A stretch of DNA of 64,000 bases from an uncultured Flavobacteriales bacterium (GCA_913063045.1 CAJXYM010000006.1:6339-70338), one strand, 5' to 3'. Shown: positions 1 through 13,318, counted from the first letter of the stretch. Notes: generated by a model not told the origin, from the letters alone. Translations and numbers: made by a program.

Positions 1-139
1 TACTTTTCATCTTCTTTATTAAACTTTAATCCTATTTTTTGAGGTGTCCATTTTGCTTCAAACAGTCTTATTATAATTCACCTATTTACAGTATATTGAT
101 TATATAATAATTAATTGTATAAATATATATAAGTATTTT

Positions 140-1243
140 TTAATAAAAAATGGAATTGATAAACTCACTAGGATTCTCTTCCTTTAGCTTGTCTATAATA
201 AATTCTTTGTGTGTTATTTTAAGATTATTCAAAGCATCAATAAGCTCCTTATCCGTAAAGCCTTCCTTTATCCTATATAAATCAACTAATTTTGCTGATA
301 TTGAATAATAAAAATCCTGAAAATCACCTCCAACTCTTTTACCCTCAACAAGGAATTTAATAAAATCCTCTCTTTCTTCTGCAGTTATTTTATTACTTAC
401 ATTTTCTAATTTCTTTTGATAAGTTTGACCACCACTACCTCCATAAATAGTTGCTATTCCTTCATTTATAAAAGTACGAAACTTATATTCTCCATTTAGG
501 ATATAATGAATCATTTCATGTTTGTTTGATAAATATTCAGGAGAAAGAAGAAGGTTTTCATCAGGTATAGTTATTCCAGTCTGCATTAAAGCATAATCAA
601 AACCGATAAAGTGTAAACTGCTTAAATAATTAATATTAATTATTTTTAATGGCTGAGTTTTTTTCTTTACCTCAAATCGTTTATACATCTCAAAATAAAA
701 GGACACATCCTTTACTAATTCCTTTTTCTCTAATTCAGTAAAAGGTTCTAGTTGGTAAAAGGTAATATTTTCAATTGAATATGTATTATAATCAGTATAA
801 TCAGGACTAATATCTAGGTATGTTTCACCTTCTTTCTTAATGAAATTCAAATTAAAAATGGCATTATAGAAATCATCATATTTCAAATTAAATGCTTCTG
901 AGTTTAATTTGTAGATAACCTTAAAGTTTGTTTTCTCTGCATCTTGCTTAGAAGATAAAATTACATATTCATTATCTTTATTTTTATAATATTTAGAGGA
1001 ATAAAAATTTAAACTATATTTTTTAAATTGTTCTGAACTATTACTTTGAATATTAATTGAATCATATTTTTTATTTAAAAAATAGTCAACTAATTCTAAT
1101 TCCTTATTTAGAGTACTATCTTGCTCTAGCTGTATTCTAAAAATTTCAGAATGTTTTATTAAAGCAGAAGTGGTATCTGAGTTTTGAGCATAAATAATTG
1201 CTGCATAAAATTGTAGGACTGAAAGTATTATAATTAATCTCAT
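140..1243 (-). CDS. Secreted putative gluzincin-type zinc metallopeptidase (element cargo)
   Basis: Signal peptide (MRLIIILSVLQFYAAIIYAQ); HEMIH followed by FINEGIA fits the HExxH...NEG gluzincin pattern. Confidence 0.6.
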   Translation of the reverse strand: MRLIIILSVLQFYAAIIYAQNSDTTSALIKHSEIFRIQLEQDSTLNKELELVDYFLNKKYDSINIQSNSSEQFKKYSLNFYSSKYYKNKDNEYVILSSKQDAEKTNFKVIYKLNSEAFNLKYDDFYNAIFNLNFIKKEGETYLDISPDYTDYNTYSIENITFYQLEPFTELEKKELVKDVSFYFEMYKRFEVKKKTQPLKIININYLSSLHFIGFDYALMQTGITIPDENLLLSPEYLSNKHEMIHYILNGEYKFRTFINEGIATIYGGSGGQTYQKKLENVSNKITAEEREDFIKFLVEGKRVGGDFQDFYYSISAKLVDLYRIKEGFTDKELIDALNNLKITHKEFIIDKLKEENPSEFINSIFY

Positions 1244-1412
1244 TTTTGTTTTTTCATGTTAAAATAAAGGTTTAACTGTACGTATTCTTTCCAAAGTGGT
1301 ATAATTTGTAAATAGATTTCGCTTTTTATAAATAAGACTGTTTTCAAGCATTAGAGTTAATTTTACATCTCCTCTTTAAAATAGAAATTAAATCATTAAA
1401 AAAATGGAAACT

Positions 1413-2222
1413 TCATTTATTATTAAAAAAACTCGTGATATGATTGATATATAAATCTCCAAAATAATTTTTACTTAGTGAATGAAATCCTTGTAAATGC
1501 CCTCCATTAAATTCTATAATATTTATTTTTTTAATCTTTTTAAGTTCTGTGATTTCAGAAAAATTATCTTCAGTTCCATGAAAAATAATTACATTTTTTG
1601 CATTTTGTAGATTTACAAAAAATAATTCATCATACTTCTTAGAAGATTTTGGGAGTAATATTTTACGATTTTTTAAATTTTCAACTTTTGTTGTGAAGTT
1701 ACTTGTATTACTGACAACTCCCTCTAAAATAATATAATCAAGAGTATGTGTTTTCAAATAAGAGTTTGTTATTATTGTTCCCATTGATAAAGCTAAAACT
1801 CCAATTTTCTTATCATTCCATTTTTCTTTTACTTTACTAATAACAGTTTCTAGGTCATCTGTAAATTCGTTATAATACAGTTGCTTTTGATTTATTTCAA
1901 AACTTGAACTTTTGCCAAACCCTCTGTAATCAAATAATACAACATTGTATCCGTTATAGCTTATGGAGTAAGCATGGTTTAATAAATAAGACATATTTCC
2001 AGCATCACCTCCTGCAATTATTATAACATTATTGTTATTATCATTTTTAACCAATGGACTAAGCCACCAACTATTTATTTTAGCTTTATCTTTAGTTAGT
2101 AGTTGATACTCTTTAAAATCTAATCCTAAAGAATCAGGTTCATATAGGTATTCAATAACTGGATTTATTGATAATGCATTTACAAAGCTAAATAGTAATA
2201 ATCCAAATAGTATTTTTTTCAT
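1413..2222 (-). CDS. Secreted alpha/beta hydrolase (element cargo)
   Basis: Signal peptide; FDYRGFGKS, nucleophile elbow ALSMG, HGTED acid motif, GGH catalytic His. Confidence 0.85.
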   Translation of the reverse strand: MKKILFGLLLFSFVNALSINPVIEYLYEPDSLGLDFKEYQLLTKDKAKINSWWLSPLVKNDNNNNVIIIAGGDAGNMSYLLNHAYSISYNGYNVVLFDYRGFGKSSSFEINQKQLYYNEFTDDLETVISKVKEKWNDKKIGVLALSMGTIITNSYLKTHTLDYIILEGVVSNTSNFTTKVENLKNRKILLPKSSKKYDELFFVNLQNAKNVIIFHGTEDNFSEITELKKIKKINIIEFNGGHLQGFHSLSKNYFGDLYINHITSFFNNK

Positions 2223-2260
2223 AATCTTATTTTATTGTTAATCTATTGTTTTAAACTCCC

Positions 2261-2268
2261 CAAACTTA
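2261..2268 (-). promoter_or_regulatory. Bacteroidota -7 element (TAAGTTTG) upstream of the cargo hydrolase
   Basis: Matches TAnnTTTG, 38 nt upstream of the ATG at 2222. Confidence 0.5.
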
Positions 2269-2772
2269 GTTATAATATATCTATTTTCAATAGTTTGAGT
2301 TTATTTATATAGGTTAAGAACTAAATACCGTAAGCAACACCTCAACTACCACTTGAAGAAACACACTTAAACAGCCACATTTAAAGTTCAATTTTATAAC
2401 TATCTATATGCTCAATTTACAGGATGTAGAGTTGTTAATTATTCTCTTTTTAAGCCTTAAAAACCTTAAAATACTTCAATATAATAAATAACTAACTTTT
2501 ATTAATTAATCATTGATAGGTTTGTTTGAGTTCGGAACTGCTGGGTAGATGTAAGTCTTAATAACAATACTTTGCCAGACATTATTTTACACTAATAAGG
2601 GTAATTCCAATAGTATAATTGTAAATAATTGATTAGTAGTTATTTACGTAATTATGATGCTATTTATAGGTAGTCAGATATATACATTAGATTCTGGCAT
2701 TTTGAGTTATTATTTTCCTAATTTAAGAGGGAGAATACATGATTTTATTATACACATGATTAGTAATGATAA

Positions 2773-2967
2773 CTAAAAATTATAAGCCATAATATGAAAG
2801 CCTGTTATATCCTGCAAAGAAGCTACTTGAAACAGCTTTAGAGCCCTTGTAGAGCTATCTAATGATACTTCTGCAATGTTACGGCTGTCTATGGGGTAAG
2901 AGAGATAAATCCCTCTGCTATCAATATAAGTTTGAACACCATTTTTGTTTATGAAATATGTATGCAT
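2773..2967 (-). CDS. Small hypothetical protein coupled to the polymerase-like gene
   Basis: 64 aa; its ATG overlaps the upstream TAA (TAATG at 2967). Confidence 0.6.
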   Translation of the reverse strand: MHTYFINKNGVQTYIDSRGIYLSYPIDSRNIAEVSLDSSTRALKLFQVASLQDITGFHIMAYNF

Positions 2968-4499
2968 TATGCTGTTTTTTTAATTGTTATAGGATTATCA
3001 GCTGACCAATAATCCACTTTAAAAGATGGTTCAAGACCTATTGCTATTATCATTTCTTCCCGCATTACTTGCTCTACATAATCCTCATTACCTAATGTAG
3101 TAGCAACAGAATCGTGAATAGTAGTAATAAATAAGTTGGGTCTTTCAATAGAAATACGCTTTGCCACTCTATTCAAAATAATAGTACTTTCAATAATTTG
3201 TAGGGTAATAGGAAGGACTGTGCTATCATTACGCTTAATATGAAAGAGTATATCATAAACAGATGGGAATAATTCCTTAAATATTCTTTTAGGTTTAGCG
3301 TCAGCTTGTCCTAAGAACCTGTTATCAGTAAACAACACTTGAAATACTGCTGCCTTAACACCCCTACCATCAATATCAGCTATACCCTGTTGTTCTAACT
3401 GCATTTCTTTTGATAGAAACTTGTACAAATCCCCACTCTGGCAAAGGTCAATATACCTTTGAATATCAACAGGAACAGCTATACTTACAGGTGGAATACC
3501 TGTTTTTGTAAACATAATATAAGAAGTATAGCTAAAGGGATTACAAGACATTGTTATAATATCACTGAAAACACTGGGTAATATGTCTGAATTATTAAGA
3601 ATATTAGGTTTTAAACCTTTTTTTAGAATTTTCTCCTCCATTTCTGCAGTTGCTGTGGCGTCAGTATTCCAAAACACTGGACTTAACAGTGTAGTACTAA
3701 GCATTGGCTGTGAATTTGCAAAATCAACTGATACTATTGGCTGACCATTATAAGTAACATAATTCCTAAGCTCACTTTTAATATTAGTAAGGTTAGTATG
3801 CACCCTATATGCAGTTGAATCTTGTGTAAAACCAAAATCTTTGTTATCAATCCTATCTATATTATCTAAACCAACAGTCAACCTAACTGTAGGATTTGCA
3901 GGTTTTTTTAATGATTTACTTTTATAAGTGGCACTAGCTACCTTTAACTCATATTTAGCTAACTTACTAGAGTATTCTAATTTATCTTGCTTATACATAC
4001 TCCAAGCACATTCAGAAGCCCCCTCTACATCAATTTCTAAGCCATCTAAATATTTATATAAGAAGCCATACTTTTTTTCAGTAGCATAAGATGAATTAGA
4101 TTTTTTAGAAAGCTTCCTTACTAAAGAACCCTTACAAATGGTTACTTTCTTAGGAGTAGCATCCGCATAACTATCTGTAAAACTAAACCCCTTACATTTT
4201 TTACCATTGATATATTGATTATCTGTTTTGAAAACATCAGCTTTAACCAACCAATCAACAGTTGCCTTATAATCATTACCAAATAAGTGTTTCAATTTAG
4301 TAGCACTTATATAGGTATAATCCCCATACAAAAGCCTTTGGTTCTCCTGCATTGGGTATAGCTCGTTAATCATTGCTAAGAGCTGATAAACCTTATATTC
4401 TTTAGGTTTATAATCCTCCTTATTAGGAGAATGAATTTTCAGTAAAATACTGTGGTTATAGTTTTTGGGTATGTATTTGTTCTTAACTTCTTTACTCAT
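2967..4499 (-). CDS. Family-A (PolA/T7 superfamily) polymerase-like protein with putative N-terminal winged helix; probable element replication protein
   Basis: YRVHTNLTNIKSELR resembles PolA GRLSSxxPNLQNIP; motif A IVSVD259FANSQ; GDLY; motif B R379GVK382AAVF386QVLF; LQ434IIES; motif C TIH462D463S. Order and spacing match Pol I apart from one insertion. Confidence 0.75.
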   Translation of the reverse strand: MSKEVKNKYIPKNYNHSILLKIHSPNKEDYKPKEYKVYQLLAMINELYPMQENQRLLYGDYTYISATKLKHLFGNDYKATVDWLVKADVFKTDNQYINGKKCKGFSFTDSYADATPKKVTICKGSLVRKLSKKSNSSYATEKKYGFLYKYLDGLEIDVEGASECAWSMYKQDKLEYSSKLAKYELKVASATYKSKSLKKPANPTVRLTVGLDNIDRIDNKDFGFTQDSTAYRVHTNLTNIKSELRNYVTYNGQPIVSVDFANSQPMLSTTLLSPVFWNTDATATAEMEEKILKKGLKPNILNNSDILPSVFSDIITMSCNPFSYTSYIMFTKTGIPPVSIAVPVDIQRYIDLCQSGDLYKFLSKEMQLEQQGIADIDGRGVKAAVFQVLFTDNRFLGQADAKPKRIFKELFPSVYDILFHIKRNDSTVLPITLQIIESTIILNRVAKRISIERPNLFITTIHDSVATTLGNEDYVEQVMREEMIIAIGLEPSFKVDYWSADNPITIKKTA

Positions 4500-4768
4500 T
4501 AGGCAGCTCTCTTATTATCGTTAAGCACTTTAAGTATTGCTTTACGCTCATAATAAAGAGTGCCCCCTATCCTAGTGTAAGGGATTTTTCCATTGATTCT
4601 ATGATTCTGTAGTGTACCTGTGGAAAGGGTTAGCATCTTCATTACCTCTGCTGACCTTAGCCACTCCTTTTGAGTAGTTGTTTTTTCTGTTATTAGTGCT
4701 ATTTCACTAATAATTTCTTCTTTCATTTTTTGAAGGTCTTGTACTGTAACTAAGTTGTTTTTATCCAT
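4499..4768 (-). CDS. Helix-turn-helix (HTH_17/MerR-like) excisionase or regulator
   Basis: WLRSAEVMKMLTLSTGTLQNHRINGKIPYTRIGGTLYY is typical of Bacteroidota element HTH proteins. Likely start is the ATG at 4768 (track start 4807). Stop overlaps the next ATG. Confidence 0.9.
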   Translation of the reverse strand: MDKNNLVTVQDLQKMKEEIISEIALITEKTTTQKEWLRSAEVMKMLTLSTGTLQNHRINGKIPYTRIGGTLYYERKAILKVLNDNKRAA

Positions 4769-4827
4769 ATTTAATATGTATTGATTTGTATTAATATCAT
4801 ATAACAAATTTTAATTGAATAATTAGT

Positions 4828-4835
4828 CAAAATTA
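4828..4835 (-). promoter_or_regulatory. -7 element (TAATTTTG) for the HTH-polymerase-small ORF operon
   Basis: TAnnTTTG match between integrase and HTH gene. Confidence 0.45.
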
Positions 4836-4937
4836 AGTATTATCTCTAATTTGCTTTTCAACATAATGTGAGTAACTAACCATTATGAGGGTCTATTTAT
4901 ACACCATGGTTTGTCGTATATAGGATTAAATATTTTT

Positions 4938-6167
4938 TTATGAGGCTTTCTGTGTTCCTTTTAAATTTATATTCATCAGTTTCTTCATGTCATCAGCTAT
5001 TTTACTGTCAATTATCTTGGCATAAATCTGTGTGGTTTTTAAATCTTTATGCCCTAGAATTTTTGCAACAGTTTCAATAGGAACTCCTTTAGTGAGTGCA
5101 TAAGTTGCAAAAGTATGTCTTGCAGTATGCATAGTTAGATTTTTGGTTATCCCACACAAATCAGCTATTTCTTTTAGATAGGCGTTCATATTTTGGTTTG
5201 AAAGGACTGGCAGAACACTGCCTTTATTAACTGCTAAGGGGTGGCCTTTGTATTTGTTAATTATTTTAAGAGCTTGTGGTATCAAAGGAATGTGAGATGC
5301 TGTATTTGTTTTTTGCCTTCTGATATGTATCCACAGGTTGCCATCAATACCTGTATGTAAATTATCAGGATTAAGTTTTTCTACATCAACAAATGCTAAG
5401 CCAGTAAGACAACAGAAAGCAAATATATCTCTGACTAGCTCCAAACGTTTTATTGTAAATTCTTTGCTAAGTAAAATCTGAATCTCATTTTCTGTTAAGA
5501 ACTCTTTTACTACCTCTTTGTTTTTCATCTTAAACTTACGGAATGGGTTTTTATCTATCCATTCATTGTCTAGAGCAATATTAATCATCTTTATTAAGTG
5601 TGATAGGTATTTATTGGTTGTGTTTCTGCTGATGTTTTTTACACTTAAAAGATAATGCTCAAAATCTGTGATGAAACCGAAAATTACTTCACCTAAATGT
5701 ATATCATCTGCTTTATAGTTAAACTTAATAAACTCCTTTAAATGTTTGTAGGAAAGCTCATATTTACCAACAGTAGCAATTGCATAACCTTTGCCTATGA
5801 GCTGATTGATTTTTTTGTTATGGTTCTCAAAAACCCCAAGAAGTGTTTTTTTATCAGGATTAATGTCTAATACAGCATTTTTAAGAGTCCCTGCTGTAAT
5901 TGATTTATTCTTTTGCATTAACTCTTGTTGATTTTCATAAACCTTAGCTTGTATAGTGTCTAGGTATTTGTTCAGTGATTTTGTTTGTTCGTTAGAGCCT
6001 TTTGCTCTGCCCTTAGTATTGTTCCATTTGTTAGGGTCAATTGTTCTTTTGGCAGAAAATTCAGCTCTTTTTCCATTGATAGTTATGCGTACATAGATTG
6101 GTACAGTACCATTTGATTTTGTTTTACTTGTTCTGATGTAGAAAAGTAGTGAGAAAGTATTTGTCAT
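4938..6167 (-). CDS. Tyrosine site-specific integrase, Bacteroidota type
   Basis: N-terminal arm-binding domain (FSLLFYIR...PIYVRITING), HTARHTFAT, LGHKDLKTTQIYA. The first catalytic Arg position reads TGLAF, as in many Bacteroides integrases. Confidence 0.95.
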   Translation of the reverse strand: MTNTFSLLFYIRTSKTKSNGTVPIYVRITINGKRAEFSAKRTIDPNKWNNTKGRAKGSNEQTKSLNKYLDTIQAKVYENQQELMQKNKSITAGTLKNAVLDINPDKKTLLGVFENHNKKINQLIGKGYAIATVGKYELSYKHLKEFIKFNYKADDIHLGEVIFGFITDFEHYLLSVKNISRNTTNKYLSHLIKMINIALDNEWIDKNPFRKFKMKNKEVVKEFLTENEIQILLSKEFTIKRLELVRDIFAFCCLTGLAFVDVEKLNPDNLHTGIDGNLWIHIRRQKTNTASHIPLIPQALKIINKYKGHPLAVNKGSVLPVLSNQNMNAYLKEIADLCGITKNLTMHTARHTFATYALTKGVPIETVAKILGHKDLKTTQIYAKIIDSKIADDMKKLMNINLKGTQKAS

Positions 6168-6279
6168 TTTAAAGTATTTTAGACTCCTATTTATTGCTTA
6201 CAATATACATAATTTTAAGTTAATATGCAACAGAATAAACTATATAATTCACATATTATCAACACTTTACACTCTTTCT

Positions 6280-6325
6280 GGTGTCCCATTTCAAAACTTA
6301 AAAAAGGACACCTAATAGGACACCT
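6280..6325. repeat. Putative integrase arm-type binding sites
   Basis: AGGACACCT direct repeats at 6305-6313 and 6317-6325, plus inverted GGTGTCC at 6280-6286. Confidence 0.6.
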
Positions 6326-6364
6326 TTAATATGGGATTTAATAGTGTTATTTGGTGATGTTGGA

Positions 6365-6401
6365 AAACAAAAAACCCCATAAACACTTAGTTTACAGGGT
6401 T
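6365..6401 (-). terminator. Intrinsic terminator downstream of tRNA-Val
   Basis: Minus-strand AACCCTGTAAAC-taagt-GTTTATGGGGTT followed by a T-rich run; the two mismatches are G-U pairs on this strand. Confidence 0.7.
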
Positions 6402-6437
6402 GTTGCTAAAATTTGGATTCTTTTGGTAGAATATCTG

Positions 6438-6512
6438 TGGGCAATGAGGGACTCGAACCCCCGACTTCCTCCTTGTAAGGGAGGCACTCTGAACCAACTG
6501 AGTTAATCGCCC
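6438..6512 (-). tRNA. tRNA-Val(TAC)
   Basis: GGGCGAT/ATTGCCC acceptor stem, anticodon arm CCTCC-CTTACAA-GGAGG, GGTTCGAGTCC T-arm; CCA not encoded. Confidence 0.97.
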
Positions 6513-6568
6513 TGAATTGTTTGCAAATATATATGAATTCTTTAATAATTAGGTTTTTTATGCAATTA

Positions 6569-7774
6569 TTATAATACTTCTGCTACTATAAAAGTACTTC
6601 CTCCAATGAAAATTAAATCATCCTTACTAGCATTTTCTTTTGCATTAATATAAGCCTGATTAACTGAGCTAAATTCATCACCATAGAGATTAAATTCTTC
6701 AGCTCTTTGCTTAAGGATGTTAGTTTGAAGTGCACGGTCTATTTTTGCTGCACAAAAATAATATTTTGCTTTTTTGGGAAGTAATTTGAATACGTTTGTT
6801 AAAACTTTGTCATTTACACTACCAAAAATAAAATGCAACTTATTAAATTTTGTTTTTTCAATTTGACGTAAAATATTTTTAATTCCATCTTCATTATGAC
6901 CGACATCACAAATGGTTAGAGGATTCTCTGATAGTTTTTGCCATCTTCCTTCTAATCCTGTGTTTTTTAAAATATTATTTATTCCCTTATTAATCTGTTC
7001 ATTGCTTATATTCCAATTTAATACTTCAATAGCTTTAATCGCTGTGCCAATATTCTCGTTTTGATAATCACCTTTCACATCAGTTGTAATATTTTTAGGA
7101 TTATCATTATAATATAATTTAGCATTTTTTTCTTTTGCAATACTCTTGAAAATTTCCTTTGTTTTATCCTGTTTTTTTCCAATAATTATTGGAGTATTTT
7201 TTTTGATAATTCCTGCTTTTTCAAATGCAATTTTTTCAATGGTATTACCTAATAAGTTTGTATGATCTAATCCAATATTCGTTATTATTGAAAGTTCAGG
7301 ATTAATAATATTAGTGCTATCTAGTCTTCCGCCTAAACCAGTTTCAATAATTGCTATGTCTACTTTTGATTCTGTAAAATAATTAAATGCCATTGCAACA
7401 GTAAATTCGAAAAATGACATATTTATTTTTTCAAATTCTAATTGATTTTCTTTTATAAAATTTATGATATATTTCTTATCTATTGTCTTGCCATTAATTT
7501 TAATTCTTTCTCTAAAATCTTTTAAATGAGGAGATGTATAAAGTCCAGTTTTATAGCCTGCTTCTTGAAGTATTGATGCTAGCATATGAGCAGTAGAGCC
7601 TTTGCCATTTGTGCCTGCAATATGAATAGTTTTTATTTTTTTTTGAGGATTATTAAGAATTTTACATGCTTTTATTATGTTCCCAATATCTTTTTTGTAT
7701 GCTGCAATGCCACTTCTTTGATACATAGGTAGTCTTTGAAAGAGATACTCTACACTTCTCTTATAATCCATCAA
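6569..7774 (-). CDS. folC: Folylpolyglutamate/dihydrofolate synthase
   Basis: IHIAGTNGKGS, YTSPHL, ETGLGGRLDSTN, DVGHN. Confidence 0.97.
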   Translation of the reverse strand: MMDYKRSVEYLFQRLPMYQRSGIAAYKKDIGNIIKACKILNNPQKKIKTIHIAGTNGKGSTAHMLASILQEAGYKTGLYTSPHLKDFRERIKINGKTIDKKYIINFIKENQLEFEKINMSFFEFTVAMAFNYFTESKVDIAIIETGLGGRLDSTNIINPELSIITNIGLDHTNLLGNTIEKIAFEKAGIIKKNTPIIIGKKQDKTKEIFKSIAKEKNAKLYYNDNPKNITTDVKGDYQNENIGTAIKAIEVLNWNISNEQINKGINNILKNTGLEGRWQKLSENPLTICDVGHNEDGIKNILRQIEKTKFNKLHFIFGSVNDKVLTNVFKLLPKKAKYYFCAAKIDRALQTNILKQRAEEFNLYGDEFSSVNQAYINAKENASKDDLIFIGGSTFIVAEVL

Positions 7775-12091: not shown

Positions 12092-13318
12092 TTATAAAAG
12101 TTTTTTTAATGCAATTTCAAAAGATGTTTTTGCAATATTGTTTTTATTTGGGTTTTTATCATATGATTCTTTTAGTGCACAATAAATTGTTTTTGATACT
12201 GCACTAAATATTTTAACATCATCCATTTTTGCGTTTTCCTCCATAAAATATGAAAATGCTCGAGCCATTCCACAATTTGAAATAAAATCAGGAATAACGC
12301 TTACGTTATTATCTGCTTTTTCAGCAATTGGTCCGAAGAATATTTCTTTATCTGCAAATGGAACATTTGCTCCAGAAGAGATTACTTCTAAATTATTCTT
12401 TATCATAGTATCTATCTGCTTTTCTGTAACTAACCTTGACGCTGCAGCAGGTATGAAAATTTCAGCTCCAATACTCCATATTTTATTATTCACCTCATTA
12501 AAAGAAAGAATATTTTCATCTTCAAGAAAGTTAGATTTTCTTTGTTCCAGCAGTTTACATATTTCTTTAAATGAATAGCCTCTTTCATTTAATAAACCTC
12601 CGTTTTTATCAATAATTCCAACTATTAAAGCTCCAGCTTGAGATAAGTAATATGCTGCTGTAGCAGCAACATTTCCCCATCCTTGTATAATTACTCTTTT
12701 GTTTTTAAGATTTCCTCCAAAAATATCATAAAAATGAAGTACAGATTCACTAACACCATATCCAGTTATTAAATCTCCTACAGAATAATCTTTTGCTGAT
12801 TCAGGTGCTAAGTTTTTATTAGTTACTATTAAAGGTACCCCACTACTTAGTTGATTAATAATTATATTTTTATTAACACCCTCAAGCTGAAGATGCCCAT
12901 TAATAATTCCTTCAAGTGGAAATAAAATACCTTCATCTTTACAGAAAGGAATAACTTCGTGAACTTCATCAACATTCATATCTCCTCCTGTTCCGTAGTA
13001 TTCTTTAAGTAAAGGCTTAGCAGCTTTGTACCATCTTCTTAAAACATCTTTTTTTCTAGGATCTCTAGGGTCAAAATTAATTCCTGACTTACCTCCGCCA
13101 ATTGGAGGGCCTGCAACAGTGAACTTGACTTCCATAGTTTTTGCTAAAGCAAGCACTTCATCTTTAGTTACCCCTTTTCTCATTCTTGTTCCTCCAGCTG
13201 CAGCGCCACCTCTAAGAGAGTTTATTACAATCCATCCTTCCGCATCAGTTTCTTTATCTTTCCATTCAAAGATTATTTCAGCTGGTTTTTCTTCAAATTC
13301 TCTCATCAATTTATTCAT
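12092..13318 (-). CDS. Glu/Leu/Phe/Val dehydrogenase family protein
   Basis: GGTRM, GGGKSG, QGWGNVA, SGANVP. Start placed at ATG 13318 because a TATATTTG element lies at 13339-13346. Confidence 0.9.
   Translation of the reverse strand: MNKLMREFEEKPAEIIFEWKDKETDAEGWIVINSLRGGAAAGGTRMRKGVTKDEVLALAKTMEVKFTVAGPPIGGGKSGINFDPRDPRKKDVLRRWYKAAKPLLKEYYGTGGDMNVDEVHEVIPFCKDEGILFPLEGIINGHLQLEGVNKNIIINQLSSGVPLIVTNKNLAPESAKDYSVGDLITGYGVSESVLHFYDIFGGNLKNKRVIIQGWGNVAATAAYYLSQAGALIVGIIDKNGGLLNERGYSFKEICKLLEQRKSNFLEDENILSFNEVNNKIWSIGAEIFIPAAASRLVTEKQIDTMIKNNLEVISSGANVPFADKEIFFGPIAEKADNNVSVIPDFISNCGMARAFSYFMEENAKMDDVKIFSAVSKTIYCALKESYDKNPNKNNIAKTSFEIALKKLL

Follow-up and report, generated by a model that had tools for sequence, protein, structure and literature searches.

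A TV-Pol-type family A polymerase as the probable DNA primase-polymerase of a tRNA-Val island in an uncultured Flavobacteriales bacterium

The subject of this study is a polymerase gene found in a window of 64,000 nucleotides, the whole stretch of DNA analysed here, from an uncultured Flavobacteriales bacterium (GCA_913063045.1 CAJXYM010000006.1:6339-70338). The gene occupies positions 2967..4499 of the minus strand, stop codon included, and encodes a protein of 510 amino acids. It is the sole conserved replication gene of a 7.0-kb island located at a tRNA-Val gene and arranged in the order integrase, helix-turn-helix (HTH) gene, polymerase and cargo; a survey of the island by open reading frame (ORF) and Pfam family revealed no other primase, helicase or Rep gene. 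The original prediction had read in this region (3100-3730) the motifs DFANSQ, F390 and TIHDSV, in which it saw a mixture of DNA polymerase I (Pol I) and T7 RNA polymerase features, and it had proposed a possible primase-polymerase with altered sugar selectivity. The three motifs are indeed present in the ORF, in the order A, B, C, and the number given to F390 is that of the 510-residue protein. Motif A (D259-F-A-N-S-Q264-P265, 3705..3725), which carries the catalytic Asp and the gate position, lies in the context VSVDFANSQPM, with the D259 codon at 3723-3725 and the Q264 codon at 3708-3710. Motif B, or O-helix (residues 378-393, 3321..3368), reads GVKAAVFQVLFTDN and contains G378, R379, K382 (codon 3354-3356), F386, F390 (codon 3330-3332) and N393. 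Motif C (I-T-T-I-H462-D463-S464-V, 3105..3128) lies in the context ITTIHDSVATT, with H462-D463-S464 at 3108-3116. All three are read on the minus strand.

The ORF has no match in Pfam (0 families at E<=1), PHROG or NCBIfam. In particular, it does not match PF00476 (DNA_pol_A), a family with which the host PolA scores 533.5 bits. The sequence searches of the PDB with the protein and with a 51-row profile gave nothing other than a chance match to GAPDH (E 0.27 and 0.75), and a protein atlas search returned only the cluster of the polymerase's own kind. The AlphaFold2 model built from the 51-row alignment (pLDDT 84.3, pTM 0.83) nevertheless has the polymerase-domain fold of a family A DNA polymerase. 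Foldseek placed Pol I enzymes at the top, with E about 1e-5, and a second structure search, independent of Foldseek, ranked highest Klenow (15.5), Pol theta (15.2), the apicoplast Pol (13.8) and T7 DNA polymerase (13.0). The single-subunit RNA polymerases came lower in the same search: yeast mitochondrial 11.3, T7 10.0, N4 RNAPII 9.2 and, lowest, human mitochondrial 8.4 and N4 mini-vRNAP 7.9. For the mitochondrial and N4 enzymes the alignment extends over 361-400 residues and takes in the N-terminal domain, versus about 275 for the DNA polymerases, which gives only a hint that this domain may be placed as in those enzymes. The N-terminal domain (residues 1-135, 4095..4499, minus strand) is winged-helix-like in the model, its weak structural matches being to winged helices only and not to exonucleases. 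Together with the want of any Pfam match in the ORF, this bears out the earlier remark that exonuclease motifs are not recognizable. According to the model, the ORF is a minimal family A polymerase, composed of a thumb, a palm and fingers with no exonuclease, to which an N-terminal winged-helix-like domain is fused.

The equivalences between its active-site residues and those of Pol I were sought with a PolA profile built from the polymerase domains of 30 Bacteroidota PolA proteins. The global hhalign against this profile was unsuccessful, and only local pieces aligned: residues 226-261 with '..D...GR.HT....N.QNIP.R......F.....L.SADYS' (E 0.009) and residues 458-496 with 'LLQVHDE...' (E 0.013). 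When the regions were cut out, motif A aligned to DYSQIEL without a gap (E 0.14, in a forced short global alignment), and motif B, whose residues 378-390 form a helix in the predicted model, aligned as R..K...F...F with R..AK..NF...Y (E 0.064). These alignments support the equivalence of D259 with D705, Q264 with E710, K382 with K758, F386 with F762, F390 with Y766 and H462-D463-S464 with H881-D882-E883. The Pol I numbers are those of the E. coli enzyme, and they are consistent with a motif C His located 47 residues from the C terminus in the host PolA. The profile-profile comparison thus upholds the residue equivalences of the original prediction, and it is Gln, not Glu, that it places at the gate. 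The residues cited there for comparison also agree with the sequences, since T7 RNA polymerase (NC_001604) contains D537 G S C S G542, R627, K631, M635, Y639 and I810-H811-D812-S813, and the genome's own PolA contains DYSQIE, K..NF...Y and QVHDE. Residues 461-483 also align to residues 810-832 of T7 RNA polymerase (E 0.17), where I461-H-D-S464 corresponds to 810-813, the beginning of its IHDSF motif, and in an ungapped comparison with the same enzyme a Ser at D+4 and a hydrophobic pair at D+12/D+13 coincide as well.

These residues are not the oddity of one gene. Of 6944 candidates in a word-indexed search, 220 were homologues at E<=0.001, and a profile search against 1.84 billion cluster representatives yielded 7690 at E<=1e-3, of which 2442 reached E<=1e-30, so that the polymerase motifs cannot be due to chance. 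Residues were counted in an alignment of 243 proteins of 400-700 amino acids, 8 of the 251 collected having been omitted on account of their length or, in one case, as the host PolA. R232, K382, H462 and D463 are present in 243/243, D259 and Q264 in 242, P265 in 240, S464 as Ser in 232, Asn262 in 230 and Ser263 in 217; position 266, which is Met in the window protein, is Tyr in 148. Arg occupies position 378 (K-4) in 207 proteins, position 386 is Phe in 207 (Leu in 24, Tyr in 8, Met in 4) and position 390 is Phe in 204 (Tyr in 38). Distant relatives are also found on 22 viral or phage loci, including versions of 387-417 amino acids on contigs of 187-595 kb, and there Gln at D+5 is kept in 21/21 rows covering motif A and HDS in 20/21 rows covering motif C. 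The combination DxxNSQP / RxxxKxxxFxxxF / TIHDS is therefore a clade-wide signature. At four related loci (L037, L038, L041 and L044), the polymerase gene copy is truncated (145-299 amino acids), and a second, distant paralogue of 476-525 amino acids, with about 21-22% identity, lies about 4 kb away on the opposite strand.

The family to which such a protein could belong has been described: the TV-Pol (Transposon-Virus polymerase) family, predicted to consist of primase-polymerases of integrase-linked elements and having members in Bacteroidetes (Iyer, Abhiman and Aravind 2008, PMC2579912). The family and its primase-polymerase prediction were known before, and the window protein would be a further member; it fits every family feature given in the accessible portion of that paper. 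The coiled-coil thumb of two antiparallel helices is represented in the model by residues 158-189 and 203-218 (3846..4028, minus strand, from the DSSP assignment), and the structure search matches residues 153-223 to coiled coils. The hairpin that precedes the palm and bears an absolutely conserved Arg corresponds to a beta-hairpin (D227, R232, H234; 3795..3827, minus strand) that aligns to '..D...GR.HT..' of PolA and in which the invariant R232 lies between the short strands 225-226 and 233-234 of the model. The two metal-binding Asp of the RRM-like palm are D259 and D463, and the RxxxK of the fingers inserted in the palm is found at K382 and, in most of the clade, at K-4. A fused or linked nuclease is lacking, with one exception among the relatives, a Tenacibaculum ORF (L030, 5965-8025) that continues into a GIY-YIG and NUMOD1 tail resembling a homing endonuclease insertion. 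Finally, the neighbourhood is that of a mobile element, with an adjoining tyrosine integrase gene and HTH gene, island borders and empty sites. The possible primase-polymerase of the original prediction is in fact the TV-Pol prediction of 2008, which both the protein and its gene context fit. The same family would include the CcPol-MP or PolA-SSB primases of SCCmec and other Bacillota elements, which their authors count among the TV-Pols; CcPol-MP, the sole TV-Pol assayed, makes DNA primers (PMC7581432, PMC10061031), and no other TV-Pol had been characterised according to the available text of Bebel et al. 2020 (PMC7581432).

Which sugar would such an enzyme accept? In T7 RNA polymerase, the hydroxyl of Tyr639 favours ribose and the residue at D+5 is a Gly. 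The combination of a small residue at D+5 and a Tyr at K+8 is not found in the window protein, which has Q264 and F390 in place of G542 and Y639, and a Gln is as bulky as a Glu. F386, the Phe at K+4, is what Pol I has there, the T7 enzyme having a Met (M635) at this position. The Phe at K+8 is the state of neither Pol I nor T7 RNA polymerase; it is without the Tyr hydroxyl that selects ribose and therefore argues against an RNA polymerase. The HDS of motif C is the T7 RNA polymerase state. The mixed picture drawn in the original prediction is sound as a description, but it gives no pointer to RNA synthesis. Hohlbein et al. 2013 (PMC3715850) describe E710 and Y766 as universal among the family A polymerases, and this pair is not found in the clade, where the positions matched to them by profile alignment are Gln and Phe at the frequencies given above. 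As far as the accessible text of the same paper goes, Klenow E710Q is a mutator with slow incorporation and weak dNTP (deoxyribonucleoside triphosphate) binding (Kd2 230 vs 0.83 uM) that closes no better on rUTP than the wild type (K2 0.056 vs 0.083), and Klenow Y766F behaves like the wild type. The altered sugar selectivity is consequently the part of the earlier reading that finds no support, its residue equivalences and its possible primase-polymerase being retained. The polymerase is expected to use dNTPs because of the bulky Gln at D+5, the Phe at K+4 and the missing Tyr hydroxyl at K+8, and to bind them weakly with low fidelity because of the Klenow E710Q data; it would be a low-fidelity initiator with a high Km. 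Low fidelity would be tolerable for an initiator making short patches. The odd residues are thus real, they are a family signature, and they favour DNA over RNA synthesis.

The borders of the island are defined by the tRNA-Val(TAC) gene (6437-6512, minus strand), whose 3' end (6436-6459) forms the left attachment repeat. The window contains no other copy of this 3' end; the right attachment repeat is located in the contig upstream of it (G000:C6:5749-5772, the same as L091 5749-5772), with 21/24 bases, 17 of them exact, 7025 bases from the tRNA-Val 3' end and 566-589 bases before the first base of the window. In 5/9 sister-genome loci the tRNA is immediately followed by the DNA that here lies beyond this repeat (79-89% identity over 47-81 bases), and these are empty sites; 2/9 match the repeat only and 2/9 end at the tRNA. 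A terminator-like hairpin that follows the right repeat is found directly after tRNA-Val in the sister genomes. Just inside both island ends lie direct pairs of AGGTGTCC, 12 nt apart (window 6279-6325 and 42-49; L091 5823-5842), the pair at the end away from the tRNA being located outside the window. On the tRNA side there are three copies, not assigned to a strand, within 6279..6325, two direct (6306-6313 and 6318-6325) and one inverted with 1 mismatch (6279-6286). With 10 matches versus 2.76 expected, these copies are likely candidates for the arm sites of the integrase. In the first 7000 bases of the window (1-7000), Rfam finds tRNA only.

Between the tRNA and the polymerase gene lie, on the minus strand, the tyrosine integrase gene (4938..6167; Arm-DNA-bind_5, SAM_5 and Phage_integrase) and the HTH_17 or excisionase-like gene (4499..4807; Pfam HTH_17 E 1e-08, PHROG excisionase/regulator), whose stop overlaps the polymerase start by 1 nt, here and in 23/44 related loci. 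The TTG start listed for the HTH gene (4748-4807) is probably too far upstream, the relatives starting at a Met that matches residue 20. On the other side, a 64-aa ORF (2773..2967, minus strand) overlaps the polymerase stop by 1 nt. It is unconserved and doubtful as a gene: it matches no family, and in 32 loci none of the ORFs that lie downstream of the polymerase gene is homologous to it, which is why it was rejected as an MP-like partner. The cargo consists of an alpha/beta hydrolase gene (1413-2222, minus strand, assigned by Pfam) and of a gene for a 367-aa protein (140-1243, minus strand) with a HEMIH (HExxH) motif, a hydrophobic N terminus and no Pfam family, which may be a secreted metallopeptidase. 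The cargo region (140..2222) lies inside the attachment repeats and has no counterpart in four sister genomes except a short repeat. A stretch of 50-60 nt at 2197-2268, just upstream of the hydrolase gene, recurs at several places in two sister genomes with 81-89% identity, and in two DNA runs the depth over it peaks at threefold; it is therefore a short dispersed repeat.

The same arrangement characterizes the related islands. The order integrase, HTH gene, polymerase is found in 29/44 related genome loci, three more being short contigs with part of it, and is absent in 12/44 (L009, L015, L030, L033 and L037-L044). A tRNA lies just upstream in 24/33 scanned loci (23 tRNA-Ser(TGA) and 1 tRNA-Asp; none in 9). 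Starting from the tRNA, the island homology between genomes ends at the polymerase stop codon in 10/14 comparisons; in one it stops 37 bases short of this point, and in three it continues for another 225-276 bases. In the cargo downstream, 10/14 scanned proteins belong to restriction-modification (R-M) or related genes. The kinds encountered are type I HsdR/HsdM, type III methylase, MmeI, Dam-like methylase, GmrSD and PLD-SNF2 helicase, and the loci in which such a gene is the first large ORF after the polymerase are L004, L006, L007, L011, L012, L013, L018, L019, L021 and L024. A tRNA-Ser repeat was not found within about 6 kb downstream in the related loci. L019 is the only one with a second copy of the 17-nt tRNA-Ser end, located 143 nt beyond the tRNA and immediately ahead of the island (copies at 3879-3897 and 4041-4059); it resembles a scar left by a previous or tandem insertion.

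The island is present in near-identical form in 13 DNA and 6 RNA runs, that is 19 runs from 15 studies. The polymerase gene is covered by contigs from two metatranscriptome runs, possibly a single data set; this is only a weak hint of its transcription, because DNA carry-over is possible. In these two RNA runs the flanks are uncovered (L091 bins 5500-5743 and 12576-12800), as is nearly all of the non-coding DNA that separates the cargo from the 64-aa ORF.

The model that we propose for the island, and that we regard as reasonably probable, is that of a TV-Pol-type enzyme acting most likely as the DNA primase-polymerase that starts island replication with dNTPs. The integrase and the HTH protein would mediate excision of the island, and the enzyme would then bind the island DNA, perhaps via its N-terminal domain. 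It would start DNA synthesis with dNTPs, as the DNA primase-polymerase CcPol-MP does, and the host replisome would take over. A more ambitious version, which we put forward tentatively as a possibility, would make it a self-sufficient, origin-specific DNA primase-polymerase, in which the N-terminal domain, placed like the promoter-binding domain of T7-type enzymes, holds the template for de novo initiation, and in which the replacements of Glu-Tyr by Gln-Phe and of HDE by HDS are an adaptation accepting the initiating nucleotide at the cost of fidelity. If so, such holding of the template would dispense with an SSB partner and a helicase, and the enzyme would be what spreads small islands, thousands of them and many with R-M genes, in marine Bacteroidota and in some very large phages.

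Several observations weigh against the role proposed here as a dNTP-using initiator. The alignments to the PolA profile are weak, and a shift of two residues may place M266 rather than Q264 at the gate, because the helix after motif A starts at S263 (D+4) in the model. The window protein is itself without the Arg at K-4, having G378 there and R379 at K-3 instead; a Gly at K-4 occurs in two proteins only among the 243, of which it is one. The clade profile finds nothing in the genome of Microcystis phage Ma-LMM01, named in the 2008 paper, and therefore gives no direct sequence link to a named TV-Pol. The literature on TV-Pol, on A-family primases of mobile elements and on gate mutants yielded no assay of the clade. 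The contigs of four runs showed neither an excised circle nor an empty-site joint, although rare forms tend to be lost from contigs. Furthermore, CcPol primes only with a separate OB-fold partner, and no conserved partner gene follows the window polymerase. This last point leads to another explanation, according to which the protein would be a primer-dependent DNA polymerase only, extending a primer supplied by the host primase, a nick or a recombination 3' end, for gap filling at junctions or for second-strand synthesis after transfer. Its fold and catalytic residues are typical of primer-dependent family A polymerases, and CcPol without MP only extends primers (PMC10061031, as far as its available text shows). 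A plain extender, however, would be redundant with the host PolA of the same genome, the island core encodes no other initiator, and TV-Pol replaces AEP prim-pol domains in fusions with D5-like helicases (PMC2579912, in the part available), so that we hold this explanation to be on balance doubtful.

That the enzyme would synthesize RNA from ribonucleotides, as an RNA primase or a transcriptase, is suggested by the HDS of motif C, by the loss of the steric-gate Glu, by the greater length over which the mitochondrial and N4 RNA polymerases align to the model, and by the fact that most primases make RNA (PMC7581432, in its accessible part). The bulky Gln and the Phe at K+8 discussed above point the other way, and we judge RNA synthesis unlikely. 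It is very improbable, finally, that the protein has no part in replication and is a component or regulator of the defence cargo, or a decaying remnant. R-M genes do lie just downstream of the polymerase gene in related islands, and defence has been raised as a possible role of the PolA-SSB primases (Rice 2023, PMC10061031), but the integrase, HTH and polymerase genes remain together from island to island whereas the cargo varies, and the polymerase has no PADLOC match. As for a remnant, the catalytic residues are kept across the 243 sequences, and the polymerase gene is therefore not decaying.

The proposed primase-polymerase belongs to a clade that is large, that is single-chain and that carries a natural Gln/Phe swap of the "universal" pair of family A; it is therefore convenient for studying how a primer-dependent polymerase can become an initiator, and it is also suited to asking how small R-M-carrying islands replicate. 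Its relationship to the known systems can be summarized as follows. With respect to Pol I (Klenow, Taq, Bst), the window protein has no DNA_pol_A match, no exonuclease domains and much smaller fingers, the pair Glu710-Tyr766 is replaced by Gln-Phe, and Glu883 by Ser. With the T7-like single-subunit RNA polymerases it shares the IHDS of motif C and an extra N-terminal domain. piPolB and the AEP prim-pols are comparable by analogy only, as element-encoded, self-starting DNA polymerases of unrelated folds (family B and AEP). CcPol-MP offers a closer parallel, that of a family A polymerase domain carried by an integrative element and acting, or proposed to act, as a dNTP-using DNA primase. In the sources at hand, however, CcPol keeps the Glu of the gate (its E174) together with the equivalent of F762, whereas the window polymerase has a Gln; CcPol needs its OB-fold partner and is accompanied by a helicase and serine recombinases, whereas the window polymerase is followed by no conserved partner gene and no helicase gene and has a tyrosine integrase and a fused N-terminal domain. 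Compared with the TV-Pols as they appear in the accessible text of PMC2579912, the N-terminal domain is alpha/beta and winged-helix-like in our model instead of all-helical, the link to a D5-like helicase known for TV-Pols is absent from the island, and the Q/F/HDS signature of the clade receives no mention in that text. What they have in common is the minimal polymerase core, the additional N-terminal domain, the lambda-type integrase neighbour and the R-M genes nearby.
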